A stretch of DNA of 64,000 bases from Psilocybe cubensis (taxonomy: Eukaryota). The stretch lies in NCBI GenBank assembly GCA_017499595.2, contig CM039009.1, positions 1,550,001-1,614,000 on the forward strand. The letters run 5' to 3'. The notes beneath the pieces were generated by a model that did not search any database, was not told the origin of the DNA, and worked only from the letters and a program-made list of their open reading frames with translations. The position numbers and the translations under genes are program-made. Positions 27,233 to 50,363 of this stretch are shown here, piece after piece. The stretch's first letter is position 1. Each line of letters opens with the position of its first letter.

Positions 27233-27478
27233 CACATAGGACAGTTGTAGAATAACGTACCTTACGACATATTTAAAAATGATGAATTGACGTAATACAC
27301 AGTGTGATTTACAAACAGTACTAAGTTAAAAATAGCCCGTCCCCTACAGTCCAGCTGGAACGGCTAATTTATCCCTTGCCACACGGGGCCATTTATTTAT
27401 AAATGGCCCCCTTGCTGGCCCATGACGGACCGTGATATTTGCCCCGTCTGCGCATCACGGCAAAATTCGGAGCCGACT
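27233..27478 (+). repeat. KDZ left terminal inverted repeat
   Basis: CACATAGGACAGTTGTAG...GAGCCGACT is collinear with the reverse complement of 42681-42925. Confidence 0.92.
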
Positions 27479-27707
27479 GCTTGTGGGACCCGTCCACGGG
27501 CCATCATATTCTGCCTATAAATGAATTACAGGATCAGTCCAAGCCGTAATTATATTAGCTTACGGTACCGTATCTACTCCAAAAGCTATGCTTGACGCGG
27601 GAAAGTATGAGCCGCTTGAAAAACCCGGGACATAACATACCCAAAAATTACATTAATCAGTGCCGCCGATAATCAATTCACCTATCAACTGAACATCTTC
27701 AACCGTA

Positions 27708-28947
27708 ATGAGCAAGGCCATTGATATGACCCAAGCCCTTTCAACTTATTTGCAAGCATGCATGGCAAGCAAGATCAACAATGGAGTGTGCACATTGATT
27801 CCGGAAGGCATGACTGCCAAAACATTGTATGAGTGCAATTTGGCAGTAGAGATAATCCTCGCAGCACACTCAAATCAAGGTGAGTGTTAAACCAAGTTAC
27901 ACAAAAGTCAAGGTCTCAGACTATACTATACCACATTAGAAAAAACTAAATGGAATGCAAATAATTATATTACACACTTGACCAAACGTTGCACTGGACG
28001 GAATGACGCTGTTGAAGAAGATCTAAAGAAATCATTTCCACCAATTCACCTCCCAATAATGTATCGGTACAAGCCCGGAACCGTGCCTGATTGTGAAGGA
28101 AACATTCTGGCATGGTACTTGCCAGGAATCTTAACAGAAAAACGGGTGGTGAGTGCTTTACTTGATGGTCAGGTAAATAGCTAAGAAACTTAGAACACTA
28201 TATGGAAAATGCTACAAAATATTGAAGCTGTTATTCGTATGACCCCATCATTAACTAGCTAGAGGGCCAACGAAACATACTTTAGACATGAGTCTGCTTG
28301 GCTGCGTCCAGGAAATGCCAACTTTTCACCCGCTTGGTTTCAGCAAGGGCATGAGGTAGGGTATTGTATTCCTTTGCAATTTTTTGATTTGAATGCTTCA
28401 GCAGCAATCCAATCCGTTGGAGGTTTCAGCTGATCTCACACATTCCAACGGACTATCATTTATTGCCGGTCTAATGACTACTTTGGCATTGATTGGAGCC
28501 ATTCTAAGCATTATTCATCCAGCACAGTTTCGGGCCGGAATGGAGTTCCTCGAGCGGATATCGTCTCAACCCGAGATCATCTACAAGGCCAAACTTTTGA
28601 AGCATATCCTCACTTTCTGGACTTCCCCCTTTGGCATCATCAGTGTTATTAGCAATAGAGACACTCCTTTTCATTGTGATAATGGATCATGTTACCCTTG
28701 GTATGATCTGCTCATGCCATTGGGCAACTATGAAAATGGGAGAATTGAACTTCCAGGCGTTGGCTTAAGGTATAAGTACGATCCAACAACATTATTTGCA
28801 ATTTCTGGAAGGGTGCTACAGCACAGGGTAATATGTGATGGAGACAGAGCAGTTTTAGCCTTTTATATGCGTAGAATGGTTTTGGAAAGACTAGGAGTCA
28901 GCAGAGCAGGATGGTCAACTTCCTCCGATATTTTTCAAAACTTGTAG
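27708..28947 (+). pseudogene. TET/JBP-family 2OG-Fe(II) dioxygenase, 4 exons, one nonsense codon
   Basis: Exons 27708-27879, 27940-28148, 28194-28355 and ~28402-28947. Motifs ILAWYLPG, FSPAWFQQGHE, SNRDTPFHCD (HxD), distal His in VLQHRV, Arg in GDRAVLAFYMR. In-frame TAG at 28260-28262. Confidence 0.88.
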
Positions 28948-28961
28948 ATTTTAAATTGATC

Positions 28962-30644
28962 TCAATGCAAAGTATTGAAATTGTTATTTAAATTGTAACC
29001 ACCGTCTTGATCTTCATCTTCATAGCTCCAGTCGTTATGAGATTGTGTTTCATCATTGGAAACTTCTGAGTCTTCTATCACGTCTGAAAACTCTTCAAAA
29101 TCTTCTTCATCTTCAATTTGTTCTGCCAATTGTTCTAAATAATCTGCAGGAACAGATGTGCCAGAAGAAGAGGAAGACGCACAGTCGTCATTATTTTCTC
29201 TATAATTGTTCAAGGATGCTCGTGGATCCAGAACAAATACCTCGTTTGCGGAAGAACTAGAAGCCAAAACGGCAAAAGGTTTGACCGGGATGACGTTTGG
29301 ATCCAATGTTTTGGCAGCAGTCTCCGGAGCCGTTTGAACGTTGACAACCCTGGATAATGGTGTAGAATACAACCAAGGGGGGTGAAAAGAAAGCTCTTTC
29401 AAGGCGACAAATGAATAAAAGATGCCATTAATACAGAATGAGGCATCATTCATTTGAGAAAGAGCATTGTATTGCATTTCAGATAGACAAACATTCCAGC
29501 CATCAGGTTTTGGGTGAACTGGATGCTGAAGCTTGTATTCGTCAGGGAATAGAAAGTTATGCTCAAAGGGAGGCCTCCCATACTCGTAAGCTATGTTTTC
29601 TATGATTAAATATCTGCCCACCAGGTCGGAAAAGTGGGCTACAGCTTCATCAGCAGTTTTCCTCATATCTGCAAGGTTAAGACGAAGATTGGCCAAAGAT
29701 CTCATAACACATGTAAAAATTGGCTGCCCACATTTGGGACAGTATGGAGGCCTATGGTCCGAGATGGCAATGGGAGACATATGATCCCAAGTATTGGCAA
29801 CTGGCGGGGCAGCGGAGTGGCTTCCAAAAGGTTGTTTGGAGTCCTGAGGTCCTGAAGGAAAACTATCCTTTGCCTTTGATGCTGGAGCTTGTGGAGCTAT
29901 TTTTTTGGAACTTCCGGAGCTCTTTTGATGCTTTAAAGCTGAAGAAATCGACAAAATGGTGTAAGAAGCATCCGCTGAGGGTTGATTGGGGTGAAACACT
30001 CCCGCCGTAGGCCTTTCGGAGTGCTGGGCTGCCGCCGGAGCGGCGGAATGAGCTTGTGCTGCAGACTCAGATGGACCACCTTTCTTGCTCAACTTGAGCT
30101 CTTCTACATATCGCGGGAGGACAATCTATGTAGATTTATCAACAAACAATTATATGGGCTTTATGTCCAGGGTCCCACCAGTAGCCCCATGGTTTTGTTG
30201 ATTTTAAAATATCATTATCTTCCTCTGCTGACCAGCACTGGTTAAGCGATTGAAAGAGAACTGCATTGTGATGGGGATTGCTATTGAGAACAGCATGAAC
30301 CAATTGGTTAAGGATTTCTGCTATAAAGAAGGAGGTGTCGACAGCAAATCCATTTATATAACAGTATCTAAGTACTCTGAGCAATATAGCCTGCAATTTC
30401 ATTTGAATAAATGATTAATTGAAAGAATAATCTTACTTACTGCCTTTCTTTCCAACAATGTAAGCCATCTTGCCAAAGTGTCCGGCGGCACGCTTGATGC
30501 CGAACTAAGTAACAATCGGTATCCAGTTCAGATCCGAGCACCACACAAATGAACATGCAGCTTTGCTAAAGCACGTCTTTCATCGTAGCTGAGAAGATAG
30601 TGTTCATCTTCAGTAGGGGGATTGAAGATACAAGGAAGGCTCAT
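28962..30644 (-). pseudogene. KDZ cargo gene of unknown function with a CPKC motif and an acidic C-terminus
   Basis: ATG at 30644 (MSLPCIFNPPTEDEHYLL...), GT-AG intron ~30440-30391, then AILLRVLRYCYING...WGYWW. A frameshift and stop near 30130-30150 lead into the 376-aa ORF 28962-30092. TGA at 30526-30528. Confidence 0.65.
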
Positions 30645-30720
30645 GGTGGTCTTGTGGCAATATTGATCAGTTAGGTGGAAAAATATATAGATTACAAGTC
30701 TAGTGAATAGAACAGGTGAC

Positions 30721-33700
30721 CTAATTTGTAGTTATAAAAATCCACACGGAGGGATAGTTGCCGTTTATCTTCCGGAATTTGACATCGGCGGCCTGCCCTA
30801 AGTCATTCCACATTGCTATCTGCTTCTGACAGAAAGCCCTATGACCTGCCAAGCGGTCCGGAACAATTTCATGCCGTTCCTTCCAAGTCTTGGCCATGTG
30901 GACATAAAATCTCACCGTCCATTCCATTTCTTTGTTTGTCAGGGATAGTTCTTCTTTCCATCTGTTTCTTTGAGCCCTAGCTCTCAGCCAGTTAAGACAA
31001 AAGACTTGTAGATTTTAGATAGTTTGTAGAGCCAAGAGAAAGATAACTCACATTCATTGACGTATAATTGGTTATCGGCATTGAGTCCTTGGCGGGATCT
31101 CCAAATCCAACTAAGCCGGTTGGAACTGCCGCCCCAAACATTTGGATACAAAATTGCCGCGCTGTGCTTGCAATCATGGTCATATAAAACAGGAAACTCC
31201 CTCCGTATCTGCATAATATCCTCTTTGGAGTGGCCGGCAATGCAAATCATTGCTATCCGGTTTGCATTGTAAATCTTTTTGTGCAATTTCCAAGATGCAT
31301 TCAACAGTTTGACTCCGTCCCATGCGTAGGTGCCTGTGTATACCGAATCTGCCATGTGGACTTGATATTTATATTTCCACGAGAGCTGAATGAGGGCTGA
31401 TCTAACTGCCTCAAGACAATCTTCAGCATGGCCCTGGCGAATGCGTAACTTGAGTTTTTGCAGCCCTTTAAGTTGGTGAGCCATGCCTTCTTCAAGATCT
31501 CGGAAATAATCATCAAGCAGTGCTGATGGGAACGGGAGAGATTGCCGTTCCGGATCCGCCCAGGTAATATTAACATTCCCAATGTCGGCTATCTCATCAT
31601 TGCTGACTTTGTTGTTAAGAACTGGGGTATTAACTCCTTGAATACTCTCCAAAGCCTCTTCCCCCAAGAATGTCAATGCAGTACGGCTGAAAGCCTCGAC
31701 TCGTGTTCACATTGACCAACGTTTATTAACCAAATCGAGCTGTTGAGCTGTAGATGGATGAGTTCCAAGTTTGCGAACATGGCTTCTTAGCTCTAATCTG
31801 TAGGGTATAAAAATATATAAAATTCAAAAAAATAAAAAACATACTGAGCTTGTTCCAATTTCAAGCCAGATGAAATCCAAGCAGCCTTGCCTGTAGCTCC
31901 GGAGGAAGTCAGCTCCATATTTGAAAGATGTAATTCAATTTCTTGTCTTCCGGCAGCAGTTTTTACTTTGCTTGCCATTACTTGACTCATAGCATCAGAT
32001 ACTCCTTGATCCCGATCAAACTCGGCCTGTTTGATTTCTTGCTCCCATGTGTCAACTAGCTCGGGAGGTTGTTGTTCCATAAGATTTTGGTAGAATGCTT
32101 CCGTTATACCGGACTGTTCAACGGCCCGCTTGTACTTGGCTGCTATGGTGGCAGCTTTGCAAACATGAAATTAGTACAGCAGACTCTATAGTAGTAGAAG
32201 TACTTACCCATGTTTATTGTTTTTTCCAATTTGAATCACCCATGTAGTCATCCAGAACTTCAGCGTGGTGTGCAGTGGTTGCCAAACGAGTACTTTGGGA
32301 AGTATCATTAAGGATGGACCAGAGAGGTTCCAATATTTTTCCGTCAATAATTCCAACGCCCGGAATGTAGGTTGAGGCATAATTGTACAAGCATTCAGAT
32401 TTATGCCTATAGACATGGAAAAGACCAATAGCAAAGATTATTTTGACAGAGGGGGGCCAGTGCATCTTTGTAGAGTCAGTCAGACACTTTATGAGATTGA
32501 CACAATATTGGCAGTTGATATCATAAATTTCCAGATGCCTAGTGATGCCTTTAGTATTTGTTGTTCCCCTTACCTGTGTTAAGGACCAATCCATGTGCAT
32601 TTGCTTCTCTCCTTTGTCAAAATCAACAACACTGTTAGGACAAAAGCATCCATGTCTTGCACATGCATGGGCGCCTATTCCTCTAACTCGTTTTCCAGGG
32701 CTAATTCTATTCTCTGCTTTTTGTGCATGGTAGTTGTGACAAGTTAGTTCCTGGAAAAGTTGTTAATTGGGAGCATGTTGAGCCGCGGCGGGAGCATGTT
32801 AGGCCGCGGCAGCAATACACTTACCCGTTTATAACGTGGTGCCAGAAAAATAGCTTCCTTTATATGCTCCTTGTATGGCTCAGGATTGGTCATAAAACCT
32901 TCTCCAACACTGAGCCAGACGTCGTCTCCCTTGTTTTTTTGATTCAAATGATTGGCTTTGAAGTTTCCATTTGCCACATAGCTACAAATATAGATATCAC
33001 TAATATAATGTGAGCTCAATAATTGAATGAAGGTATTCTGCCTACCTATCAGCTTCAAGAACCCAGTCATCAGATAGGTTAACACCTGGCTGTAGACATG
33101 CTGGACAGAACAATCTCAAGGACCCTCTTTTATCTAGCTCGTTTCTGGACGGAGGTTCAGGTGACATATTATTTGGGTCAGAATCATCTGGATCAACTTC
33201 AAACCGGGATGTTGTATCATTCCATTTGGGAACTTCGTTTGGTTCCGATTGTCGGGATGAAGAATTATTCCGTATTTGCTCTGTTTCCGGAGGTGTTATT
33301 GAGCCAAAAGGTTCCTGATTGGGATGAATTTCAGAGCCTTGTTGTGGGTATTTCAACTCCATATAAGCTTTTAGAGCCTGTTCAGAGTGTCCTTGACTGT
33401 GTATTTTGTGCAATATAAGGTTTCTGTATTGGCGACTAAGCCTTTTCAGTTCCCAATAGCAGTTCAGAACCTTTTTGGAAAATGAAGGAGAGGTAATGCG
33501 TCTGAGCTTTTCATAATATTGATAGCCCAAGATTTTGCATTCAAGGTTGATAATCCTAAAATCCTCCAGCAAATCCAGAGTAAACAAGATTCGGATATTC
33601 TGGAAACTAGTAGCAAAAAGACCCATTTCCAGATATTGCAAATCCAAAGGCAGCACGGCAGATCGGCAAGTACAAGTCCGAACGGGGAGATAGTGTACTC

Positions 33701-34723
33701 CGGATGTATGAATAATAACTTTGAATGGGATACCGTCATTATCTTCGGCCCTTGGACGGGGTTGATCGTGGAAGCTTGTATCAAGTTCCTCATACAAGTT
33801 GATATCCTCATCGTCTCTATCATCCAGTTCAAACAGAGTTGGGATTTCAGGATCTGCAAGAAGCTGAGATGTGAAAGACTTTTCGTCATTGTTTGCTGGG
33901 GTTGGACCAATGTCATGAGTATCCATAAGTTTGGCGGTATCATGAGTCCCGCTCCTGTGGTATTCATTGGCGGCAAATAATGTGCTGCTCCAATAGTTGT
34001 TTTCGGCGGCAGATTGAGTCCTGTTTCCAATATATTCTTTGGCTCCAATGCTTGTCCCGTGGGTACTCTTGTTTAAGGGCAATTGTACTGGACACCTCTT
34101 CCCATTATGACCAAGATACAACCTAATACCCACTTCCCATAAACCTCCAGGACGAAAGTACTCCCCTGTCCATTTCTTGACTCGGTGAAACAGAATAAGT
34201 TGATGGTTTTGTCTCAGACAGTGAGGGCAAACAAGCTGAGATCCAAAACATTCAAGGCATCTCCAACATCCTGGGAGTCTTTGGCATTGCTGGCATTGAT
34301 TATCCCGATGCGGAGGAGGCGCCTCCCGGCCAATACATCCCAAGGTATATTTCTCTCTTTGGAAGCCACTCTCTAAGGTAGTCATTTTGAGACTAAGATA
34401 ATAATTTGTGAGCAGAACACCTCAATACATTGACACAGATATACCTTTCCCCCCATCCTAACATCCTGTAACTCTCTCAAGTTGTCAATTACCTGCTGGT
34501 CTGTCAGATCTCCCGGATAGTGAGGTATGTCTGCTTTATCTATATTGTGTTCAAAGTGTTGTAACATGTTTTGGGCAGGTAGAGGAATAGAAGTGGAAGA
34601 TTGGCTTGTATCAGGTCTATATTTCCTTGGCCTTCCTCTTTTCCTTGAAGCCCTAGAAGACCAGCTTGCCTCCTTGGGGCCGTCGCTATCTAATCCATTA
34701 TCTGGCACAGTATGAAAGCCCAT
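30721..34723 (-). pseudogene. KDZ transposase with CxC2 cysteine cluster, multi-exon, inactivated
   Basis: SQNDYLREW; CxC2 (CQQC..WRCLECFG..CPHC...HRVKKWTG...LGHNGKRCP, IHTSGVH..CTC); FCPACLQPGVNL; VANGNFK; CARHGCF...DFDKGEKQ; YDINCQY; GLFHVYRH..C; DGKILEPLW; DDYMGDSNWKK. Several frameshifts and stops. Confidence 0.93.
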
Positions 34724-35611
34724 GGAAGTGGGAAGCAAAGTGTCTGAGCACCTGTGAATTTCATTCTAAATACAGTATTCCATTGATAGCTCTTCACCAT
34801 GTGCATTAAATTTATTTTAGTCTACATAATCTTTTTGAGGGAGAAAATAGCTTTCATATGACCTATCTTGCAAGGAATTTGGAGAACTGTAGCCAATTTT
34901 ATGAACAAGTTTCATTTTAGATGTGCAGAAAATGGTCGTGATCCCAACAGAAATGCATAATGTAATCTACAATGACCTCTCAAAACCACTCTCCTGAAGT
35001 ATTTTGGCCATAACTCTCCATGCACATGCTCCCTACTCCTCTGGCATATATCATATAAAAAGTATTTTAAATGTCTATGCCATGTCAGTCTTTAGCAAAT
35101 TTAAATCCATGTATGTGAGAAGATATATGCAATTTACTGAAATGTTGCCCAATCTGAACTTGCTAGGATTCCAATTTCTTTGCACAAGAAACACAGTTTA
35201 GAGTACTTTACACAGACTCTTAGATATTCACCATTTTAATTTTTTTAAAATTGGAGGTGGAAAGTCATTTGCTTACTTTTACATTTTTAAACATTTCCAT
35301 GTGAGATATAACAGTCTTATATACAGAAATTCAATTAATACATATATAATTTATTGCTCACAAAATTTTGAGAGGATAGAGCAAGAACTAGGTGAGCTAT
35401 AATGAATATACTTTGTGATTGTGTGTGATAATGACAAGAGATGTTTGCTCGCTGTGCCCAACGTTTGGGCGGGATTGCCTGATTAAGTAGTTTCCCATGT
35501 CTTAAAATAGTAATCAAGATCAAAATCTTATTTTATCTCCGGTTGGTCGTAGATTATCTGGAATTCAGTCATTCATTGATAAGCTAATATGATGCCCATC
35601 CCTTTGTACAA

Positions 35612-37810
35612 ATGCCTCCTCAACCTCCTCCCTCAAACACCTCTGACAATTCAGGTCGCAGGCCTTCTGCCCCACCGCCCGGTGGCACTGTCGGGCCCGA
35701 TATTCCTCCCAACGAGGAACAACTGTGGACAGCTAGGGAGATGAGAATTCTGAGAGGCAACGTTCAAAACTACAAAGACACACCGAGATTATCCAAATCA
35801 GACTTTATTTGGAATACTATTGTGCCGTTAATCAAAGCCACATGGGATTACAAGTATTCGGAGGTTGCAATGAGAGCCAATAAAGCCTTGTTCAATGAAT
35901 GGAAAGCTAAGAAAGATGTAAGTCATGTCTTTATTTTGAAATAGATGCTAACATAAAATATTAGAGACTCTTTAATTGGTTTGCTAACCATGCCTCAACC
36001 CCTCAAAATGCCAAGTTGGATGGTATTCATGGACAAGCAACCTTTCAAAGTGTTTTTTGGGAGAAAAAGGCAGCCAAAATTGAAGAAGAAGTGCAGCTTT
36101 TATCGGGAAATGCACGATGGGGTAGCCCTCAATGGATTAAGTTTTATCAGCAGGCAAGAAAGCAAGTTGAATCTAGGCTTATTATGAAGGAGAGAGAGGA
36201 ATATGCTCAAATATTAGAGGAGTGGAAAAAGAAGGGTTTCTCCAAGACTTTAAAAGCAAAGTACGTTTGGCGGCATTACTTGGCTCTGATACTCACCTGT
36301 CAATAGGACCGCAAAACGACAAGGAAAGAAGATTCTTCACCAAATGGATCGAATAAAGTGGCTGAGGATGGGGATGAGATCCATTACATTTGAAGGCCAT
36401 TATGATCTTGATGGAAAAATTGAATACTCAATGTGAGTTATTTTGTTATTTGAACACTTTTGTTTTTCGGGATGTATGTGGCTCCCAATGACCTTTGGGA
36501 TTACATTGTGCCGGTTATGAATACGGGACAACCTGTTGTCCCGATCATTAACAACTTGATGCTAACTCATTAATAGGACACAAACACACAATCTAGGGTT
36601 GGATGACCCTCGCGTTCCTTCATTTGGACAACTATTTACAGATGAATTAAAGTCGTTCAGAAGGGCGTTTGTAAAATATCTTGTCAAGGTTTCAGAGATT
36701 GAAAACGGAGTATTAATTCCCGCCGTCCCCGCAGGCACTTTTCTTGAAAAGGATTTGAAGTTCAATAGCAATGGATTTCTGTTGGTTCCGTCACCTATAT
36801 ACAACTCAAAGGGGAGGGAGACTAATGCAATACAAAAAACAATCATTAGAATCTATATGAACTGAGTGTATGGTGAGTAATGTATTGGATTAATTCAACA
36901 TAGGGCTGAAATATTATAGCCTTGGCAAAAAATAAGAGTGGATCTCGAATCCCATGGGACTCCGTGGAGAAACATTTTGGCGAGATGATTGATCCCAAAT
37001 ATTGGCCAAGTTCCATTCCATTCACGGATCCAAGCAGACTCCGCGTTGATAACACTGCTGCTCTTCTGAGATATTGGAGACAGCATCAGTCTCATGGACT
37101 AATTCCTTTCAAGTTTGAAAGAGTATTGGTACGGGATAATGAAGAACTGTTGGAACCATGTTACGCTTCAAACTTGTTTGAAGGTCTCCAAACAGTGCCT
37201 GTACCCCCAGCACCAAGGTGCTTGACTACCTCAAAAAGAGTTCGTAGGAGACCTTGTCAAACATCTTTGAGTTTTTCAGAGCAATCTAATCCCTCTGATA
37301 CTCATGATGGACACCCTCAACAAGATTCTATCAGTGTTGACAGCCCTGGTGTTGGAACTGCAAGTCGTGCATGGGATGATACTCAGGCCAATAACACTCG
37401 GAATGACAATTGGGCCAAACAAACATGGGATAACACACAAGCCAATCAACCACGGGGATGAAACACAAGCCGATCAGCCTTGGGATAAAACACAAGCCGA
37501 TCAACATTGGGATGATAGTCAAGAAGGCATAATACCAACTAATAGAAGCCCTACAGTAGTAAACTCTTCCTTAAGACCTACTCCTGAACTTCAACAGCAA
37601 GGTACTAGCAAAGCTATACGCAAAGTTCAACCTCGGCCTAGGAAGAAAACTCAAAAATTAATTGGCAGTTCGGAGGCAAATGACCCCGTTCCACCACCGG
37701 CAGCAAGAGCCTCCCGACGCAAGTAAACTTCGGATGACTTAGCACTCCAGGAAGCAAATAACTTAGGCTTGACTGCAAAAAAAAGCAGAAAAGCTAGAGC
37801 CAAAAAATAA
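35612..37810 (+). pseudogene. KDZ-associated helical/HMG-like protein, 5 exons, disrupted
   Basis: Exons 35612-35917, 35965-36260, 36307-36432, 36577-36872 and 36920-37810 have consistent phases. WTAREMRIL...RLFNWFANH; HMG-like FYQQARKQVESRLIMKEREEYAQILEEWKKKG; IPWDSV...IDPKYWP...DPSRL...LLRYW. Stops at 36863 and 37724, frameshift at ~37455. Confidence 0.72.
37372..37521 (+). repeat. Degenerate ~30-bp coding tandem repeat (W-D-x-T-Q-A-D/N-Q-P units)
   Basis: TGGGAT(G/A)A(T/C/A)ACACAAGCC(G/A)ATCA units, repeated about five times. Confidence 0.7.
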
Positions 37811-38123
37811 CAGGTAGTTTAGTTAGTTGAATACAATATAACATTGCTTTTATAAAACTCAAAGTTTTTTATTTTTCACTTAAGTGCATTATTCAACCAA
37901 CAAGTAAAGCAAAATCAAAATATCTTTATAAACAGAGACATTAAACATTATAAAGACATATACAGCGGATATACTATGTGAGCCAAATGTAGAAGATTAG
38001 GTGATTGGTCAAAAAAAAAACTCCAAGTAGACATGCCCAAAGAAACAAGAAGGGAAGACTAAGGAAATATAACACATGAAAAGAAAAGAGGTACAATACA
38101 TAAAAAACACACCCAACCTGTCA

Positions 38124-40564
38124 TTACTTTTTAGCTGCCCTTCCTCTGGGTTTTTTGGGGGAAGGTGGTGTCTCTGGCTCCTTGGCTACTTTGCGCTTTC
38201 CGCTCCTTGCAGCACGAGTCCTCTTAGCCATATTGGACACCTTGGGGTCCACCTTTTTCTTCCCTTTTTGCTTTGCCTTTCCTTTCGCCTTCTCAGTAGG
38301 AGCCTCATCATTGCTTGGTTCCGGGAATGACAGATCAGAAGATCTACCATCCTCATTGACCTTGTCCATCTCAACATCTTTTGGTAGGTGCTGAGGCTGA
38401 GGCTCAGACTTTGAAGCTGGAGCTGGGTGAATGGGTGTTGGAGGATCTTTATGGCCCAGATTCGGCGGCAAGTTGGATCCCGCGGTTGATCCAACTTGGC
38501 GATTTTGACGCAGTGGTGACATGGGGCCCGGCGGTGATGGAGGTGCCGGCAATCCAACTTCACGATTTTGAAGTGGTGGCAACATTGGCTCAGGAGGCGG
38601 CAGAGGTAGAGACTATGCTGGGTTGGAAGATGCCAGTGACAAAAAGCGAGGTGGAGCCGGGGAAGCAGGAGGCGGGGAAGCAGGAGGTGGTGAAGCAGGA
38701 AGAGGCAAAGCAGGAGGCGGAAAAGCAGAAGCAGGAGCAGGGGAAGCAGGAGGGCGGGGAGTAGGTAATGCTGAGTATGAGGGTTGAGCAGAATTGAAGT
38801 AGCTGGGAGAGTGGATAGACTTACCATGTTTGTCCTGCCTCCTGTGATCCAACTTTGACTCTATACTCTTCATTACCTTCTCCATCGACTCCATTTGAGC
38901 TTTCTGAGAGGCAGAAAGCTGAGTCAAACTAGTGACTCTGGCATGGAGTAAGGTGAGGCTGCTATGGAGTGCAGCATTCTCCTTGGCAACCTCCCCAACC
39001 CTGGTGTAGAGTTGCACCAGCAACTCCCCAATGTCCTTCGGCACTGGCAGTTCTCTCCTCTTTCCTTTACCTGGCAGATCCGATCCCTCCGTCTTTTTGG
39101 CACACAAGATATCCGCGTACTCCACAGTCGGAGTTGTCAACGCCATCCCAGGCGGCTTCACAGATTGTCCCGGGAACAAGTCACACTTGGTCTTGTTGCG
39201 ACGGCACAAGACACAAGCCCGAGAGTACTGAGGGATCGACTTTGACCCCTCAGTGGCAAACCCAACAATGGTTTGCCCCCTTTCCATCTTGCATTGTCTC
39301 TTGCGTGCTTGGCAGGCTTTGCAGGCAGGAGAGACAGTGATGACGTTTTTCTTGAGGTTGTCTGCCTCTGAGCGACAGTGTGCCTTCTTGAGAGGAGCCT
39401 TGTTGTCTTTTCCTTCCTCCTCGCTATCCTCACCCTCACCCTTACCCTCACCTTCATCCTCACTTCAGTCCGTGTCCGTCCCAATGGTGGACTTTGACTT
39501 GGAAGCAGGCTTCTTCCTGCTGCTGCTAGCCTTCGGCGGAGCAGACATCTCCAGCTTTGCGGGTGTCTTTTGGGCTGATCTTCGGGCCCGCGGCTCGCTT
39601 TCACTCCCGAAGACAGCTAATGTAGGGGGTGGGGCTTTGCCTTTGCCCTTGTCAACCTTTGCAGGGAGCGCGGTTTCGGCTCCGGAGTCCTCCGCACTGG
39701 ACTCCACCATTGGCTTGGATTTCTTCTCCGTCCTCCTGCTTGGTTTTTTGGTCTCTCTCTCCTTCTTCTCCTTCTTCTTCTCCTTCTCCTTCTCCTTCTC
39801 CTTCTCCTTCTCCTTCTCCTTCTCCTTCTTCTTCTTCTTCTCCTTCTCCTTCTCCTTCTCCTTCTCCTTCTCCTTCTCCTTCTCCTTCTCCTTCTCCTTC
39901 TCCTTCTCCTTCTCCTTCTCCTTCTCCTTCTCCTTCTCCTTCTCCTTCTCCTTCTCCTTCTCCTTCTCCTTCTCCTTCTCCTTCTCCTTCTCCTTCTCCT
40001 TCTCCTTCTCCTTCTCCTTCTCCTTCTCCTTCTCCTTCTCCTTCTCCTTCTCCTTCTCCTTCTCCCTCTTTCTCTCCCTCTCCTTCTCCTCCCTCTCCCT
40101 CTTTTGCTTCTCCTGCTCTCTTTCCCTCTCCTTCTCCTCAATCTCATTGCCCTTGTTTTTACTCTTTCCCTCTTTTTCCTTTTGCTTTTTGCTGTCCCTT
40201 GCGTATTTGTCAAAATTTTCCATTTGCTTGCAAAGCTCTGCAAAGTCAACGACAAATTCGTGAATGGTTCGACCTTTGTTGTCAGAAACGTCGCGGCATG
40301 CCTTGTTAATGATGGGGCCAATATAATCAAAAAGCTGATAGGCTTTGGGATTGCGAGTGTGGAGGAGGAACACCTTGGCCTATTGAGGATGTAACGATGT
40401 AAGTTATGTTTTTCTATGATGTGGAGTCTGTTACTTACCAGCTCTGTCCACAACACCTCAACTCTTGACCCAAAAATCTTCTCGCCAGCATCAATGGAGG
40501 AACGAGCCATGTTTTGCCAATGTTCAACATCGGTCTTGAGGGATGCGGAGGAGGTGGAAGCCAT
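38124..40564 (-). pseudogene. KDZ cargo gene: EK-repeat, Zn2Cys6-like cluster, coiled coil and Pro-rich tail; 2 exons, two nonsense codons
   Basis: Exon 40564-40439, intron GTAAGT...CAATAG, exon 40379-38124. ORFs 39465-40373, 38613-39287 and 38124-38585 share one frame, separated only by TGA (39465-39467) and TAG (38613-38615). Read-through gives CKACQARKRQC-x25-CVLCRRNKTKC. Confidence 0.8.
39770..40065 (-). repeat. (GAGAAG)n hexamer microsatellite encoding (EK)n
   Basis: About 290 bp of near-perfect CTCCTT repeats on the plus strand, with one CTT interruption near 39828-39840. Confidence 0.97.
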
Positions 40565-40790
40565 GGTATGGATCGAAGGTCACATGATGAGTTCAAAAGT
40601 CGCGTGGATAAGAGGAGAGATGTGTAGACAAAGCGCGTAGATTGAGTGGAAGTGTCAAGGTTAGAAGTAAAAAAAAAGTCCGAAGTCCAAAATTGAACAT
40701 GTCCAAAATTGGACTTCAACACAAACAAGTGCAATCATAAGTCAAGTGATTGCGCAACAACTGATTCAGCAAAAATGTGCTAAGTTTGCA

Positions 40791-40998
40791 TTCACACAGC
40801 ATGCATTGCTCCGATCAGGTAAGCATATTTCACAGAGCACAGTGTTCCGCAACAACATTTCACGGGACGGTAGCCATGCTCCAATATATAATCGTTCACA
40901 CGGCATGCATTGCTTCAATCAGGTGAGCATATTTTACGGAGCACAGTGTTTCGCGACAACATTTCACGGGACGGTAGTCATGCTCTGATATATAATCA
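40791..40998. repeat. 104-bp tandem duplication in a divergent intergenic region of the KDZ element
   Basis: Units 40791-40894 and 40895-40998: TTCACAC.GCATGCATTGCT....TCAGGT.AGCATATTT.AC.GAGCACAGTGTT.CGC.ACAACATTTCACGGGACGGTAG.CATGCT...ATATATAATC. Confidence 0.9.
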
Positions 40999-41183
40999 AC
41001 CTGGCTAGTTTAAATTGGGATTGGGATGCCTACTTCTTCCCCTCATAAACTTGTCATTGATACCACCTCTCTAGACAGGCTTACTTACTTACTCGAACAA
41101 CTGAAAAAGCCTCCACCAAGAAAGATAAGTAAATTATTGTATTGCAATTTTCCTGACTGGTAGTAAAGACCCTTGCAGTTACA

Positions 41184-42520
41184 ATGCCCACACAAGCAAA
41201 CCCGAACAGCTCAGATCATGGACAACACACAATGTACGCCATTGATCCTAATAATTTTCCCGAAATATTACCCCCTTCTGCTACAAGTAAAATGTTCTTT
41301 TCATAATATATGATAGACTCTCACCTATCCACAGATGCATCCGATGAGGAGAGTTCGGGAAGTGATGAATCTTCCGATGATGTTTTGGAAAGTAATGATT
41401 CCCCCGATGATGGTTTGGGTCACAACAAATCCTCCAGTAACGGTTTGGGAGATGATGAATCTTCCAACAACGGATCCAAATCTGCCAATGAACCAACTAT
41501 ACCTTTGAATGATAAGGGCAAAGGAAAGCAAAAAGTCAACCTTGCAGTAAATGATAACTCTTTTGTTCCACCCCCAGATTTTGGTAAGTCTTGACAACAC
41601 CTTTGAATGGATCTGCTGAAAATATGCTGAATATGAAGATTCCAATTCTGAGAGAGACTTGTCCTCTCCTATTGAAGAGGTACAGACACACCTGGCTGTA
41701 AATGATTCTTCATTTGTGCCTCCTCCCCCACCCTTGGGCAAGTTAACTTTACTTTGTTAAGTAATTTCTCTGACTGCATCTCTGAATTCTTCTAGATGTT
41801 ATTGATTTAGATTCCTCCAGTGAGGATGCTCAATCCATTGTGGAAATGCAAACTTCCCGATGTTTGGCTCAGTTGCTTGCGCCAAAGCCTTCGGCAACCA
41901 TCTCCTCCGCCATAGTGGTGGAGTTCTCTTCCACCAAACTGCATATCAATGTGCCTACCGCGGAAGAAACTCCCATTGTTCTAGCCATTACTCCCATTAT
42001 TTCCTACACATCTGTTGTAGATTCTATTATCCTCGAGTCTCGTCCTATGGTATCAACTAAGAGAAAGGGTGGATGCTACTCCCCACCACCTGAGGCATGC
42101 CATCTTCTGCTTTGAAATCCCTATTTCAGGACATATGGTAGATCCGACCCCATGGGAAGCTATCCAAGCAGTGACCCTCCAACAGCCAAGGAAATTGAGT
42201 TTGATAAGATAAAGGAAAGGACAAGCTACTTTAATCCGCCCTTCTTTTATGTATATTCTAATCTTTTATTAATTGCAAGAAATCTGATTTGTATTTTCTA
42301 GAACTATACAGAGCAGCAGCTTCATCAAAGTCATTACAAGATTAAGCATACAAAGCTGGAAGATAATAGCTATCTCAACAAAGCTACTACTCTAAAGAAT
42401 CTCACCCTCAATCAGCTGCAAACTCAAATTCTGCACAGCAATGCTTTGAGCAAGATTGACGATGGAATAGCTATTGTAGAGAATGATCTGGAATCATTGA
42501 TAAAGTATAACCCCGCGTAG
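41184..42520 (+). CDS. Putative multi-exon KDZ cargo gene: acidic D/S-rich N-terminus, helical C-terminus (exon model tentative)
   Basis: ATG at 41184 and several GT/GC-AG intron-like segments. DASDEESSGSDESSDD...; repeated peptide LAVND(N/S)SFVPPP; last exon YLNKATTLKNLTLNQLQTQ...LESLIKYNPA* ending at 42520. Confidence 0.5.
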
Positions 42521-42569
42521 CAAAATAAATGCATTTTCTGGTTTCTAATTTACAGGAGCAAAATGCTTC

Positions 42570-42683
42570 GGGAAACTACGGAGCCGATATTGGTAAAGCT
42601 ACTTCCCGTCATCAGTTTTGGGGCAAAATACTTTGGGAAACCACGGAGCCGGTGTTGGTAAGGCTGTACTTCCCGTGATTAGT
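42570..42683. repeat. Subterminal direct repeats next to the right KDZ TIR
   Basis: GGGAAAC(T/C)ACGGAGCCG(A/G)T(A/G)TTGGTAA(A/G)GCT..ACTTCCCGT.AT.AGT at 42570 and 42635. Confidence 0.8.
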
Positions 42684-42925
42684 CGGCTCACAAATTTGCC
42701 GTGATGCTTAGACGGGCCAAATATGGTGGCCCGTCATGCCCCTGTGAAAGGGCCATTTATAAATAAATGGCCCATATGGCAAGGGCTAAATTAGCCGTTC
42801 CAGCTGAACCGTAGGGGACGGGCTATTTTTAGTTTAGTACTCATTCTAAATCACTCCATATATTATGTGAATTCATCAATTTTAAATATATCGTAAGGTA
42901 CATAATTATACAACTATCCTATATG
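42681..42925 (-). repeat. KDZ right terminal inverted repeat
   Basis: Reverse complement CATATAGGATAGTTGTATAA...GAGCCGACT matches the left TIR. Confidence 0.92.
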
Positions 42926-43533: not shown

Positions 43534-43692
43534 AGCTAAGATTATGGACGTCTCTTGATCCGCGACCACCACCAGCAAAAATCTTCCCACGCTCAACAGC
43601 CAGGGAAGACGAAGGGAAAGTGGACGCAGATCAAGTAGATAACACACTCATAATCATACTCTATCCTCTAAATATTGCACTTAATACGAAAT

Positions 43693-45684
43693 ATGGCTTC
43701 AAAACAGACCACACCAGCAAGAGGAACGAAAGATTCGAGCGGAGGAAGTCCATCGTGCGAGAGAGTGACAACGCGAGCTGGAAATAAGAAAGCGGTGGCA
43801 AACAAATCCGTAAGCACAGTCAAGAGCGCGGAGGATGGCAAGCTTTGGCTCAACGAACGAGGGCTAACAGAGGACGGAGAAACAATCAACACACTTACGA
43901 TGGCGCAGACGCTACGACAAATGGCGAAGTGGGAGAAGATAACGAAAGTGACGTGGGTGGAAGCATTCACAGTGGTCGCATACATACTCGAGGAGACATA
44001 CAGGGAAGAGAGGATACAACAGGTGGTGGACAAGGCAAAGGAGGAGATGGAGAAGATAGCGAAGTCAGCAACGGAGGAGATGGAAAGGATGCGAGAGGGC
44101 TGGCAAAAGAAACTCACCAACACGAGGGGGAGCCGGACGGAACCAACCGTGCAAAATCAAACGGACGACTGGAGCGAAGAGGTCGATAACTTCCTGGAGG
44201 AATGCCAACAGACACAGGACGAGGGGAGAAAAGAGGAACTACGAAGAGGTGAGGGAGGGGAGAAGATACGGGAGGAAACGAGAGGAGGGAGCAGAACATA
44301 TGCAGCAGCAGCAAGGAGCACCACAAGGAGAACGACAGCGTCAACCGAGGAGACAATGAGCTTCGAGGAACGCCTGAGGAGAGAAATACTCGCAAGGGAA
44401 GCAAAGAAAGAGGTGCAGATACTCATCGACGGGTTGGAGACGAAACAAGACGGGAAAGACTTGACCCCCGCCGAAATCGTGGACAAGCTCAACATTGCAT
44501 GGGACATGGCAAGCAAAGACGCGGAGGTAACATTCTTTGACAGTCAGGGCAACCCCTCAAGGATCAAGATCGAGGAGAGCCCAATACGAACAGCGAGGGT
44601 CCTGCGGAATGGCGGAGTGGTGGCCGAGTTCAAAGACAGGGATAGCGTATGGCCCTTGATAAGGGATGGAGAGTTCAGACAGCAATACGAGGGCGCACTC
44701 AACATAACGATCAAGGAGAGGGCATACACACTGCTGGTGGAATTCCTGCCCACCACCCTCAAAGACAGTCTTCTGGAGATCAGGGATGAATTGGAGGAGG
44801 TCAACGGGTTAAAAGCTGGAACAATAAAGAGGCTGAGGTGGATGAGAGATCTGGAAAAGAGCTGGAGAAGCCGACAGAACTTCGCGCATGTAATGCTGAC
44901 GGTCATCGACAGGGACATTGCGAACAAGATAATTCTAGAGGGGCTGATCATACACGGAGCAAGATACAGAACGAGGAAGCTGGAGGACAAGCCGAGGAGG
45001 TGCTACAACTGCCAAGTCCTAGGAGCGGAACACACGGCGGCCTCCTGCAAAGAGAAAGAGGTATGCGCAAACTGCTGCGCGACAGAACACATCATGGCCA
45101 AGTGCGAATATGCAGCAAACAGCGGAAGATCGACGTGCGCAAGCTGCAAGAAAGCGAAGATGGAAGACTGCAACCACCCATCGTGGAGCAGGAACTGCCC
45201 CATCTACATCTATCACCGGAAGAAACTAAGGGACAGACAGCCGGAGAACCACTTCAGGTTCTACCCATGCAAAGTTGACAGAAGCACATGGGAGAGAAAG
45301 ACGGACAGCTACGACGACGAGAGTTTTATTGCGAGATGGGAAGGAGGGGGATACAACGAGAGGAGGAAGACGAGCCTGGAGGAAAGGGCGCAATTCATAC
45401 GACGGCAAACACAAGGGACTGGAGGGCAATGGAAAGGAAACGGAACACAGCAGAGCAGCAGAAAGAGGAGCAGCACGATAGGATCGATAGCGTTGACACA
45501 AAGAACAACAAAGTCGGATGGAGGGGGAGGGAGAAGCGGGACGAGGAGAGTGGAAACGAGAGAAGGCAGGAGAGAGGCAGGGGGAGAAGGGCAGACGAAA
45601 TCCATAACCCAGCAGACCCTACACCAACTCTGGGGAAGCCAAGAAGGACACAGACAAACCGCCCGACAGGGCGCGAGTCAATAA
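43693..45684 (+). CDS. LINE ORF1 (gag-like nucleic-acid-binding protein)
   Basis: Open frame with three Cys/His knuckles: CYNC..HTAASC, CANCCATEHIMAKC, CASC..HPSWSRNCP. Confidence 0.9.
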   Translation: MASKQTTPARGTKDSSGGSPSCERVTTRAGNKKAVANKSVSTVKSAEDGKLWLNERGLTEDGETINTLTMAQTLRQMAKWEKITKVTWVEAFTVVAYILEETYREERIQQVVDKAKEEMEKIAKSATEEMERMREGWQKKLTNTRGSRTEPTVQNQTDDWSEEVDNFLEECQQTQDEGRKEELRRGEGGEKIREETRGGSRTYAAAARSTTRRTTASTEETMSFEERLRREILAREAKKEVQILIDGLETKQDGKDLTPAEIVDKLNIAWDMASKDAEVTFFDSQGNPSRIKIEESPIRTARVLRNGGVVAEFKDRDSVWPLIRDGEFRQQYEGALNITIKERAYTLLVEFLPTTLKDSLLEIRDELEEVNGLKAGTIKRLRWMRDLEKSWRSRQNFAHVMLTVIDRDIANKIILEGLIIHGARYRTRKLEDKPRRCYNCQVLGAEHTAASCKEKEVCANCCATEHIMAKCEYAANSGRSTCASCKKAKMEDCNHPSWSRNCPIYIYHRKKLRDRQPENHFRFYPCKVDRSTWERKTDSYDDESFIARWEGGGYNERRKTSLEERAQFIRRQTQGTGGQWKGNGTQQSSRKRSSTIGSIALTQRTTKSDGGGGRSGTRRVETREGRREAGGEGQTKSITQQTLHQLWGSQEGHRQTARQGASQ

Positions 45685-45685
45685 A

Positions 45686-48600
45686 ATGACGACCGAACAC
45701 CATGAAGACAGAACAGAGGGCTTTAGAATTTGGCAGCAGAACACAAGAAAGTCAAACAAGGCGCAACTAGCCACAATACATACAGCAGGGGAGGATACAC
45801 AATTGATCTGTATACAGGAACCGTATATCGACGCGAGGGGCAACTCGAGAGCCACAAGAGGGTGGCACACCCTATACCCGACAAACAACTTGAGGGAAAG
45901 GGCAGCACGATCACGGGTATTGATGCTGGTCAACGCAAAGATACCGACGAATGACTGGACCCAGATAGACATAGACTCACCGGACGTGGTGGCGGTTCAA
46001 TTCCGAGGGCAGCAGAAGTGGGTCAACGTCATAAACATCTACGTGGATGGGGAACACGACGATGCGTTGAACTAGATTAGGAAATGCATGGAGGGAAGAG
46101 AGAGGGGACGAGAGCAGAGGAGGGAGGAAGCGAGAGTGGAGATGGAAATATGGTTGGGGGACTTCAACAGACACCACCCGATGTGGGAGAGTGAAGAGAA
46201 CAAGAGGCTGTTCACGGCCAATAACTTGCGAAAGGCAGAGCCGCTGCTACGATTACTGGCGGATTACGGTATGGAACAGACATTAGCAAAGGGAACACCA
46301 ACGATCATAAACGCACACAGGAATTACACCAGACCGGATAACGTATTTGTATCGAGTGACCAGGCAGAATGGGTAATCGGATGTCAGACCAGGGAGGAAG
46401 ACATGCCAGCAGCCGACGACCATATACCAATAGTGACGACACTGGAGCTACCAACAAAGCAGGCAAATCACAGGCCAAGAAGGAATTACAGAGCGACAGA
46501 CTGGAAGGCGTTCCGAGAGACGTTAGAGAGGAAGATAGGGGAACGCAGGAGGGATGGGGAAATAGGAAGCAAGGAGGAGCTGGAGAGAGAAGTGGAGGAA
46601 TTGGAGGCGATGATAGTAGAAATAATGGATGCACATGTACCGATGACCAAACCGTCATACTACATGAAGAGATGGTGGACCAAGGAGCTAGACAAGGCGC
46701 GGAAATCAGCCAGCATGGCGAAGGGAAAGGCAAACAGACGGAGGCAGATGCCCGACCACCCAGCACACCAAGACGCAAGACGAGCTCGTAACAGATACAC
46801 CAACCTTATCAAAACAACAAAGAGGAAGCACTGGGAGGAATGGTTAGACAATCTAACAGGGAAAGAGATGTGGAATGCGCAGAAATTTGTAAAGGCAGCG
46901 CCATCAGATGGAGGGAGGACAAGGATTCCGGCACTGAGGATTGAAGACGAGGGAGGAGAGGCGAGGGAAGTGAAGGACAACAAGGAGAAAAGTAGACTGC
47001 TGCACAGAGCATTCTTCTACGAGCCGCCAGCGGACGCGGGGGTTGACGAGCAACAAGAGTACCCAGAACCAGCATTCAAGTTTGAACATATCACGAGGGA
47101 GCAAATCACCAGAATAGCGAAAAGCCTGAACCCATACAAGGCTCCGGGAATCAACGAGATACCAAACGCAGTGCTAGTGCACTGTGCAGAGCTGTTAGCA
47201 CCGAGTCTGGAGAGAATATACCGGGCGACGTTTACACACGACCATTACCCAAGGAAGTGGAAGAAATACACAACAGTAGTGTTGAGGAAGCAGGACAAAC
47301 CAGACTACAAGGTAGCAAGTGCATATCGACCAATAGCGCTGCTGGACGTGTTAGCGAAGCTAATGTCAGCGTGCGTGAAGGAGACGATAGAACACCATGT
47401 GGAGAAGCTGGGGCTGTTGCCGGAGTGACAATTTGGAGGAAGACCGGGATGCACAACAGGCGACTCCTTACATCTGCTGATGAAGTTCACAAAAAATGCA
47501 TGAAGGAGAGGGGAAGAAGTAGCGGTGGTATATATGGACGTCAAAGGGGCTTTCCCAAACACGGTTATACTGGTGCTCGTGCACGACATGAGGATGCGTG
47601 GGGTACCACCTGAGTACACCAGATGGATCACGAACAAGTCCAAAGGCAGGGAGACAGTGATTGCATTCGACGACTTCACGTCGCAGCCAATCGCTGTGCG
47701 GAACGGACTGGATCAAGGTTGTAACCTATCAATGTTGGCATACAGATTCTACAACGCGGGACAGATAGAGAAAGCCAAGCAAGATAAGCGCGAGATCTCA
47801 ACCAATTACGCAGACGATGCATATATGGCTGCAGCGGGAAAGACAATGAGAGAGGCGGTGAGGAGAGTTGAGGAGGCTTTCCACAGGAGCGGGGGCCCCA
47901 GAGATTGGGCAGTCAGCCATTTTTCGGACTACCAGTACGACAAATTTGTCTTTGAGGGCCTGACGAGGAGGAGAATAGTAGACCCAGAGAACCCAAGAAG
48001 AAGAATACCGGAGCCGGCACCAGAAATCAAGCTCGATGGAAGGAACATAAGGGCTAAGACCTTACACAAATTCCTGGGCGTGCTAGTGGACAGCGAACTG
48101 AGATTCAAGCAGCACGCAGCATACGCGATAGCGAAGGGCACAAAGATGGTCAACCAAACAAGACGGCTATCAAAGATGGTGAAAGGGATGAAGGGTGAGT
48201 TTGCCAGGCGAATATACTACGCGAGCGTAGCCTTGAGCATGCTATATGCAGCAGACGTGTGGTGCCCCACAGTGACGGGAATGGGAAAGGGGAAAGCGAG
48301 AGGCATGTCAGGCGTGATGAGGAAGCTGGACAGCGTACAGAGGAGGGCAGCCTTACAAGCAACCGGGGCCTTGCGCACCACACCAACGGACCTGTTATTT
48401 GCACACGCGGACATGCCGCCAACGAGAGAAGTGATTAGAAAGCTGTGCAACGCGGCGGCACTGAGAATGGCCACACTACCGGAGAACCACCCAGTCCACA
48501 CAGAAGTCCAGAAAGCACGGAAGAGCAGGCCCCAGCGACACCCAGCCCCGCTGCATCACGTCATGCACGTCAGTAGAATTTTCAAGAACAGGTTTGAGCA

Positions 48601-49726
48601 GATAAGCACCCACTTGAGAGCCCCGACGTGGGTCCCACCATGGAGAACAATGATAGCAGGCAGCAGGGAGGAGGCGATGGCACAGGATAAAGAGGATGAG
48701 AGCGACATCAAAATATATACCGACGGATCAGGCATAGATGGGAAAGTGGGAGGAGCTGCTGTAATGTACGAGCAGGGAAGGAGGACAGAGGTTGCGAGAC
48801 ACTACCTAGGAACAATGACAGAGCACACGGTGTTCGAAGGAGAGTGCATAGGCCAACTACTAGGCATGCATATGCTGGAGCAGAGGTTGCGAGTAGGAGA
48901 GAGGAGAAGGAAGGTCGAGATATGCATGGCAGCGGACAATCAAGCGTCGATAATGAGACACAGCGAGAGAAAGCAGGGTCCAGGGTCATACATCATTGAC
49001 GAGATGCAGAAGAAATGGGAAGACATTAAGAAGAAATACCCCAACGTCCAAATGACGTTGCGGTGGGTACCTGGGCACAAAGGGCTGAAGGGTAGCGAGA
49101 GGGCGGACAGGGAGGCAAAGAGGGCGGCAAAGGGGGCGCAGGAGGACAGGGGAACAAAGAGGGGATGCCTGAGAGGTGACCTGCCACGCAGCAAGGCAGC
49201 GGCAAGACAGGAATTAAGAGCAAGGGCCAAGAAGAGAATTCAGAAGGATTTCCAAAAGGGACCCAGATACAAAAGAATGGCAAAGATTGACCCGACAGCG
49301 CCCTCAAATGTATTTCAACGTATATGCAACAAGCTGGCGAGAACAAGCGCGAGCATAGTGATCCAACTCAGAACCGAACACATACCTCTCAACGCGCACC
49401 TAAACAAAATCAGAGCAAAGGAGAACCCAAACTGCGAACAGTGCGCAGACAACGTGCCGGAGACAGTAATGCACTATCTGAGAACATGCAGTGCATACAC
49501 AGAGCAGAGAGAAGAATGGAGAAAAGAGTTGGGACCAGGAAGAGCAATCGACCTAGCGCTCCTGGGGGAGATGAAGACAATCCAGAGCGCACTCAGATAT
49601 GTAAAAGCAACAAAAAGATTTGCAGAATTGCACGGCGACATCATATGCAGGGAAAAAGAAACAGAGGAGGAGGAGAAAAGGAGGGAGGAGGAAGAGGAGC
49701 TCGAGCAGGAAGAAACATGGGCGTAG
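45686..49726 (+). pseudogene. LINE ORF2 (AP endonuclease, RT, RNase H, CCHC) with three in-frame stops
   Basis: IWQQN, ICIQEP, LGDFNRHH, RPDNVF, KAPG, YRPIALL, QFGGRPG, DVKGAF, GLDQG, YADD, IYTDGS, WVPGH, CEQC..ETVMHYLRTC. One frame throughout, with stops at 46073, 47426 and 47501. Confidence 0.93.
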
Positions 49727-50363
49727 AAGGAAATCGTGAGCAACAGAGACCGAGAAGAGTGACAAGACACCGACAGAGAAGGCGCCAACAGGGCAGGCCA
49801 CAGCCCAAACGTCCCACTTCATTTCATTCCCGACGTGTACATATTCAAGACTTACATTCAAAACTGTCCTATATTTCCTTCAATCAATGTCCCATATTGC
49901 GCATTCAACTTTCACCATCATTCCCCATGCATTTCATACAATAGACCATATAATTCAACTAACATAAGCACCACGTATTACAATCTAGATATTATGCACC
50001 AAGGTGCGAGGCGCTACCAAAGGAGGCCCAACACTTCAGTAGAGTTTGAGTAGATTAGAACAGCAGCACATTAGAATAGAACTAGTAGATGCAGACGTCC
50101 TACATAAGGTACAACCTCAAAGGGCAATAAATGGATTTAAAAAAAAAAAAAAAAAAAAAAAAAGCTAAGATTATCCCAGAGTGTGAGATATTTACAGTGA
50201 ATATATGCGCGTTGAGCTAGATACAAACCAGGTATAGATGACACTCAGTGAAATAATTGATATTGTGTGTGTAAAAAGGAAGTTGTCGCTTGAATCACAA
50301 AGAAGTCTAATGTAGCTTCTAAACAGATGTATCCACCTTTATGTGAAGGTGGGGCCCATAACC

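Follow-up and report, generated by a model that had tools for sequence, protein, structure and literature searches.

The window analysed here is a stretch of 64,000 nucleotides (G000:C12:1550001-1614000) from the 46.6-Mb genome of Psilocybe cubensis. It contains a Kyakuja-type KDZ DNA transposon at 27233-42925, and one gene of this element, referred to as gene 1, is the subject of this study. Three full-length paralogues of the element (contigs C6, C17 and C2), each with its own 7-bp target-site duplication (TSD), are 99.9% alike among each other and 91.6% alike to the window copy. The window element and these three copies are called family A, and their sister family is called family B. Gene 1 comprises three exons and two introns (dN/dS: ratio of nonsynonymous to synonymous substitution rates):

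38124-40564, minus strand: gene 1
40439-40564, minus strand: exon 1, starting with the ATG at 40564 and encoding the first part of the N-terminal helical domain (dN/dS 0.06 against the C6 copy)
40380-40438, minus strand: intron 1, GT..AG, 59 nt; in the family-B protein P0004, the first exon is joined at the corresponding position
38825-40379, minus strand: exon 2, from the reading frame and paralogue comparison
40191-40379, minus strand: second part of the N-terminal helical domain (dN/dS 0.08), the most constrained part of the protein
39753-40139, minus strand: charged E/K/R tract, including a pure (GAGAAG)38 run at 39837-40064 in this copy only
39465-39467, minus strand: premature TGA, codon 347 (CGA in the three paralogues)
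39183-39323, minus strand: six-cysteine cluster C-x2-C-x6-C-x25-C-x2-C-x6-C, Zn2Cys6-like, with the recognition-type half probably second (Pfam, alignments, model)
38847-39026, minus strand: leucine-rich heptad helix, a putative coiled coil judged from sequence; its ELLVQL block is conserved in family B
38771-38824, minus strand: intron 2, GT..AG, 54 nt, in frame; it holds the only TAA of the paralogues
38124-38770, minus strand: exon 3 with Pro-rich tail, acidic patch and basic end; premature TAG at 38613-38615 (codon 613; TCG in the paralogues)

A previous sequence-only reading had joined the frames 39465-40379, 38613-39464 and 38124-38612 into a single minus-strand frame, broken only by TGA and TAG. 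The three do form one frame, but two introns had been missed and 18 of the codons read through are intronic. Intron 2 is spliced identically in P0003, the public model for this copy. A truncation of the paralogues by a shared TAA was considered and rejected, because this TAA sits inside intron 2. Without its introns, the window copy comprises 776 codons, of which numbers 347 and 613 are stops. The C6, C17 and C2 paralogues, in contrast, all possess unbroken frames (790, 790 and 792 aa) that contain neither of the two stops. The proposed origin of the TGA from CGA agrees with the CGA found opposite 39467-39465 in all three close paralogues. The TAG at 38615-38613 had been derived from CAG, but it faces TCG (Ser) in all three.

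Compared with the C6 copy, the gene has a dN/dS of 0.24 over 614 codons and thus worked for most of the divergence time. Constraint is unevenly distributed, with 0.06-0.08 in the N-terminal domain, 0.26 in the cluster and 0.31 in the tail. Between the same two copies, 665 C>T and G>A changes stand against 255 in the reverse direction. Within the whole element, C>T is most often found in TCG (126/322, 39%), which is three times the 13% of CCG, and the decayed copy has lost CpG (377 vs. 598). Taken together, 38124-40564 is almost certainly a dead copy of a real transposon gene.

The intact reading frames encode about 790 aa and begin with the N-terminal helical domain, followed by a charged or low-complexity spacer, the six-cysteine cluster, the leucine-rich helix and a Pro-rich and basic tail. 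For the N-terminal domain, the model of a family-B relative is all helical (predicted local distance difference test, pLDDT, 67), and Foldseek delivered no match at E<=0.001, only generic helical bundles. The count of about 50 EK pairs was accurate: we found 51, of which 38 form one pure run (40064-39837). In each of the three paralogues the longest EK run is 2, within a mixed E/R/K/Q tract of 160-162 residues. A charged tract at this place goes back to the ancestor of families A and B, but the pure run is limited to the window copy and may have arisen there as a repeat by slippage or assembly. The leucine-rich helix starting at 39026, the Pro-rich tail and the basic end are present as described.

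The six-cysteine cluster and its half order

The pattern C-x2-C-x6-C-x25-C-x2-C-x6-C lies at 39323-39183, where it had been reported. Conservation of its cysteines had been named as decisive, and these six are the only invariant columns throughout the alignment (15/15 rows). The isolated domain is recognized by the Pfam family Zn_clus (PF00172) in two partial stretches of 23.9 and 22.7 bits, both above the cut-off of 21. On the 283-aa frame the score is 18.6 bits and falls below this cut-off, while 11 of the 15 rows match at E<=1. None of the ten database matches carries a precomputed domain. A circular permutation of the halves, as outlined below, would explain why these proteins escape Pfam.

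The metal-free model of the cluster (pLDDT 77) contains helices at residues 16-20 and 52-57 and a hairpin in the loop. In a wide fold search only two of 48,161 chains reached Z>=2, namely Pho7 (Z 2.3, rmsd, root-mean-square deviation, 3.2 over 41 residues) and Lac9 (Z 2.1, rmsd 1.8 over 32). Foldseek ranked Gal4 and Pho7 first, at E>1. The predicted fold therefore matches Zn2Cys6 chains only, yet weakly, and this weakness has to be counted against our interpretation. Weak fold scores are usual for a domain this small. On the strength of pattern, profile and model, the cluster very probably adopts the binuclear Zn2Cys6 fold.

Gal4-type proteins place their first helix in the major groove and recognise CGG through Lys18 (PMC6265462). 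This canonical order, with the recognition half first, is not what we found in gene 1. The C-half of the window copy aligns to Pfam positions 1-14, and positions 17-38 are matched by the N-halves of 4/5 relatives tested. The alignment of the related cluster L152 starts with Gal4 25-48, runs through the Gal4 post-cluster linker and then continues with Gal4 8-22. At the position of Gal4-Lys18, K or R is present in 10/10 C-halves of the family representatives and in 3/10 of their N-halves. The same position is basic in 12/13 first halves and 3/17 second halves of host clusters. A half classifier built from these 13 first and 17 second host halves was correct for 30/30 when each was left out. It scored five complete host clusters at -27 to -36 and the ten family representatives at -3.8 to +23.4 (mean +7.3), with the window copy at +21.6.

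Part of the evidence suits a cluster of ordinary order, either with an AlcR-like loop that drifted towards symmetry or with both halves reading DNA, and such a protein would be a plain factor for the promoters of the element. The best match of the family profile in the PDB is AlcR, end to end in normal order (E 0.006). The window copy has the basic K/R motif, with K at the Lys18-type position, in both halves, and several N-halves are neutral, including its own (0.9). Furthermore, 3/10 representatives lean towards the canonical side (-0.7 to -3.8), and CGG triplets occur in a 104-bp repeat upstream of gene 1. However, none of the family representatives has a score similar to those of canonical host clusters, and the Pfam and Gal4 alignments reverse the halves in the clearest relatives. 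We therefore regard an ordinary order as rather improbable.

Instead, the alignments and half scores suggest that the cluster is probably a circularly permuted Gal4-type module with the recognition-type half second. In such a module the CGG-reading half would follow a loop of 7-25 residues, which would correspond to the Gal4 region after the cluster. Although off the canonical order, it probably still works like a Gal4-type cluster. The description as an element-borne, Zn2Cys6-like protein with a coiled-coil-like helix can be kept, and none of the three outcomes named beforehand as refuting it was observed, but a reversed half order fits better than a stretched loop. A long loop alone is not new, as the AlcR loop has 16 residues. 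The half order, on the other hand, looks new.

With Gal4-type Zn(II)2Cys6 proteins (Gal4, Lac9, Leu3, Pho7) the gene-1 cluster shares the two C-x2-C-x6-C halves, two short modelled helices, a basic residue at the Lys18 position and a leucine-rich helix downstream. It differs in its apparently second recognition-type half, in its middle loop of 7-25 residues and in being encoded by a transposon. In addition, the cluster lies mid-protein after a helical domain, with about 50 residues to the leucine helix in family A. AlcR of Aspergillus nidulans (PDB 1f4s) resembles gene 1 in its long middle loop and as best profile match. It differs by the normal order, by extra helices both within and behind the cluster and by monomeric binding (PMC6265462). 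For gene 1, the model gives the loop as a hairpin, and the cluster is succeeded by a putative coiled coil.

A host gene (L101/L092, G000:C7:1480185-1480652) contains several tandem Zn2Cys6 clusters, whose adjacent halves mimic the swapped arrangement. A tandem arrangement is the usual route to circular permutation. One might speculate that tandem clusters of this kind were the route taken here as well.

Gene 1 among KDZ elements

Within the genome, 30 matches to the gene-1 protein were detected, 26 of them in family B, where the loop has 18 residues. To cover loci outside the known A and B copies, 96 KDZ matches were reduced to 36 upstream stretches of 9-10 kb each. The strict six-cysteine pattern was found on the transposase strand in 10/36 stretches, 5.8-7.1 kb upstream, and one stretch contained a cysteine-rich repeat on the opposite strand. 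The pattern was absent from 180 shuffled 9-10-kb stretches and from 178 kb of control DNA. A profile search added one locus, L056, in which Cys4 is replaced (P0014). Across all carriers, middle loops of 7, 8, 9, 10, 11, 14, 18 and 25 residues occur.

The transposase tree comprises 35 rows: 31 of the 36 loci (four gave no match and one was too short), families A and B and two metagenome contigs. It splits into 18 and 17 rows with a support of 98/95. Fourteen rows of the first clade carry the gene. Two more are counted as carriers: L058, a family-B element with the gene beyond the stretch, and L050, with two clusters further upstream. The remaining two rows are not assessable, since the upstream part of L067 is truncated and the stretch of L131 is too short. 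Gene 1 is thus present in 16/16 assessable rows of the first clade, compared with 0/17 rows of the second within the stretches read. Consequently, gene 1 is a core accessory gene of one Kyakuja clade.

Its presence in another fungus rests on the metagenome contig L141, the sole one of 36 KDZ contigs with at least 7 kb upstream. The KDZ transposase of L141 is 48% identical, and the motif lies 7.1 kb upstream on the same strand, followed by a coiled-coil-like frame. A HMMER scan of 1.84 billion representatives yielded three proteins and two profile searches yielded 10 and 8. Where named, all of these database relatives are labelled Psilocybe cubensis. A single-protein homologue search with a 548-aa paralogue frame gave no match. 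The ESM Atlas gave leads under 0.9 only, and in one search the top rows were Zn_clus.

This distribution also bears on the idea that gene 1 is a captured host transcription factor carried as neutral cargo, or that its cysteine pattern arose by chance. Zn2Cys6 genes are indeed common in the genome (33 Pfam matches). However, the gene shows purifying selection and holds a fixed position across the clade and in another fungus, the L053 domain has eight matches, each of them upstream of a KDZ match, and chance is excluded by the shuffles and the control DNA. Neutral cargo or a chance pattern is thus highly improbable.

Two further loci with half-swapped clusters were observed. At L152 (5022-8300; G000:C13:1407929-1411336), two such clusters, separated by 3.2 kb, enclose a TET match. 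All three share a strand and precede a KDZ match by 11-14 kb, in a gene order unlike that of families A and B. In the window itself, a second and badly decayed half-swapped cluster, 71% like L152, is located at 59178-59411 (minus strand). Beside it lies a broken TET remnant (60739-61152, minus strand); both appear to be remains of another Kyakuja family.

Family-specific CGG words and a possible self-recognition role

Short words with a CGG core are enriched in these elements, measured against a trinucleotide background. In the C6 copy, GGCGGCA has 12 dispersed sites where 1.3 would be expected, and of the 32 sites of TCGGGA, 23 are dispersed, compared with 9.7 expected. The word of family B is CGGCGGA, with 32 sites, of which 22 are dispersed where 2.8 would be expected. 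Each family holds the words of the other at background level. The words of the two families recur in homologous introns of the transposase gene and of gene 2, which faces gene 1:

36472-36500, plus strand: three family-A TCGGGA sites in the gene-2 intron, 1/3 intact in the window copy; in family B, the homologous intron carries six CGGCGGA sites in alternating orientation
32772-32814, minus strand: both family-A words in the transposase intron, compared with three CGGCGGA sites in the homologous intron of family B

Sites of family B tend to lie outside conserved coding DNA (7/32 inside vs. 58%). The window copy retains 10/32 TCGGGA sites, and in 18 the C has been lost. Loss of the C in decayed sites is confined to one strand, because C>T is commoner in TCG than in CCG. 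Among the loci compared, the top 6-mer contains CGG or CCG at 10/13 carriers and at 1/23 others. The words are absent from the terminal inverted repeats (TIRs) of A and B and from the outer 0.9-1.2 kb in family A. Consequently, the TIRs, which had been put forward for binding tests, are disfavoured as the target. In one family-B element (L028-L029, offsets 931-1579), eight family-word sites form a tandem array with a 36-bp period near the left end.

These patterns resemble the VANC system of the VANDAL transposons of Arabidopsis, in which short words in introns and spacers, differing between sister families, are the targets (PMC5735166). In both cases an element-encoded protein coincides with short family-specific words in the introns and spacers of the same element, a likeness that serves as a working model and implies no homology. 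In contrast to gene 1, which is known from sequence alone, binding and demethylation by VANC were shown by experiment (PMC5735166). The gene-1 words also differ from those of VANC by their CGG core.

In the favoured reading, the gene-1 protein would dimerise via its leucine-rich helix. The dimer would bind the CGG-containing word of its own family, scattered in introns and spacers. Binding would mark the element's own copies and keep them expressed or unsilenced, as VANC does for VANDAL. We consider it evenly balanced whether a dimeric, permuted Zn2Cys6 protein binds the family word along the element with this effect. Whether the gene-1 protein itself binds the word as a self-recognition factor we judge marginally more doubtful. 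In families with TET, the same protein could also guide the TET enzyme of the element. Tentatively, the clade and its CGG words might represent an independent, co-evolving fungal VANC-like system, with TET recruited to its own copies in some families.

Several results weigh against this model. Family-A sites do not avoid coding DNA (16/32 and 8/13 vs. 59%), and the best word of the window copy itself (p 1e-5) is at the level of controls. At 3/13 carrier loci the top word lacks CGG or CCG, and the L152 and L050 element, which has two clusters, shows no enriched CGG word. Gene and words share one clade, so that their co-occurrence is a single event, and the words could be bound by gene 2 or the transposase instead. 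Between long- and short-loop families the N-terminal domains, helical-looking in both, gave no significant alignment (hhalign probability 1.3%), and full-length orthology is thus unsupported. Finally, no TET match was found at short-loop carriers, where divergent TETs may escape the search.

Some of these points would be expected if the cluster were a structural zinc knot in a scaffold protein without specific DNA binding, with the words read by gene 2 or the transposase, or left over as retained CpG in young copies. The carrier without a word fits such a role, as does the N-terminal domain, which is more constrained than the cluster, and decayed copies do lose CpG fast. Nevertheless, the enrichment exceeds the trinucleotide background and differs by family, and the recognition-type basic residue is kept in all C-halves. 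A purely structural role consequently appears slightly less probable even than an ordinary half order.

A role in transposition itself is somewhat more credible, though still unlikely. Here the protein would bind internal or sub-terminal motifs and help the transposase to assemble, without any anti-silencing role. In Harbinger and CACTA elements a second protein aids transposase assembly on its own element. The fixed slot of gene 1 beside the transposase across the clade, with or without TET, is in line with such a helper, and family-specific words would confer family specificity. However, words that are missing from the TIRs and spread over body and introns correspond to the pattern described for VANC (PMC5735166). 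This distribution favours self-recognition over help in transposition.

All 29 TET matches above the cut-off belong to families A and B or lie beside related clusters, at C13:1.41 Mb and at 59.2-61.2 kb of the window. In this genome, TET elements are a subset of gene-1 elements. TET guiding is disfavoured as the original job of gene 1, because many carriers are without detectable TET. In families A and B it is possible that gene 1 guides TET.

TET-bearing Kyakuja elements of Agaricomycetes are already known (Kojima 2025, PMC12730594). The main text of that study makes the case that every TET gene works for the transposon family in which it resides, without naming a targeting factor. It also contains no mention of zinc, Zn2, GAL4, HMG, accessory or cysteine, with most of the supplement outside this search. 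Our literature search found neither a zinc-cluster gene in KDZ elements nor a permuted zinc cluster; it did not cover Iyer et al. (2014), cited in PMC12477816 for accessory genes of KDZ elements, which may name the gene. Gene 1 is thus a concrete candidate for a TET-targeting factor with concrete target words, comparable between two sister families of one genome. TET recruitment by gene 1, if true, would explain how transposon-borne TET could act on one family at a time. If the best-studied DNA-binding module of fungi occurs naturally in circularly permuted form and with a range of loop lengths, this would provide new structural information.

The element and its surroundings

Around gene 1, the element contains the following parts:

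27233-42925, strand not assigned: Kyakuja-type KDZ DNA transposon of family A, 15,693 bp, CA..TG ends, 7-bp TSD GCATTTG on both sides
27233-27488, strand not assigned: left TIR, from element comparison (inverted repeats about 255 bp)
28393-28947, plus strand: last exon of a TET/JBP dioxygenase (Pfam Tet_JBP, E 3.1e-14)
28962-30125, minus strand: gene behind the transposase, identified by conservation
about 30100-34770, minus strand: CxC2-KDZ transposase (CxC2 at 33042-34421, Pfam E 2.6e-18; KDZ at 32214-32762, E 4.5e-33)
about 35000-37461, plus strand: gene 2, multi-exon, facing gene 1, identified by conservation; no Pfam family in the three exons scanned
40791-40997, strand not assigned: two copies of the 104-bp repeat just upstream of gene 1, with 8 CGG/CCG triplets and zero family words
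42681-42925, strand not assigned: right TIR, from element comparison

Kyakuja elements are defined by 7-bp duplications and CA..TG ends (PMC12730594). The element in the window possesses a KDZ transposase with a CxC cluster, a 7-bp TSD and CA..TG ends. It is filed as Kyakuja by TSD and ends; the transposase tree held no named Kyakuja reference. With the elements described by Kojima it shares the CxC2-KDZ transposase, a TET/JBP gene, the CA..TG ends and the 7-bp TSD. It differs by its TIRs of about 255 bp, since Kyakuja-1_LB and -2_LB are given without TIRs (PMC12730594). At three other places, the two flanks of the element were found joined directly, with an overlap of 7 bp.

Another gene lies near the right TIR (about 42020-42490, plus strand), with 59-72% protein identity between families A and B. 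A further family-A copy at G000:C8:2532047-2543708 is matched by the left half of the element only and contains insertions.

Several other elements are present in the window. A Copia-type element with direct repeats 89% alike (21030-50661) is old; the Kyakuja element and a LINE-like (long interspersed nuclear element) element at 43672-50163 both appear to lie within it. The latter comprises endonuclease, reverse transcriptase, RNase H and poly-A. At 14962-20562, a young Copia-type element, whose long terminal repeats are 99% alike, is located at the glycogen synthase gene (11777-14317). Finally, a 1.6-kb element at 57069-58678 has inverted ends of 214 bp that are 91% complementary.

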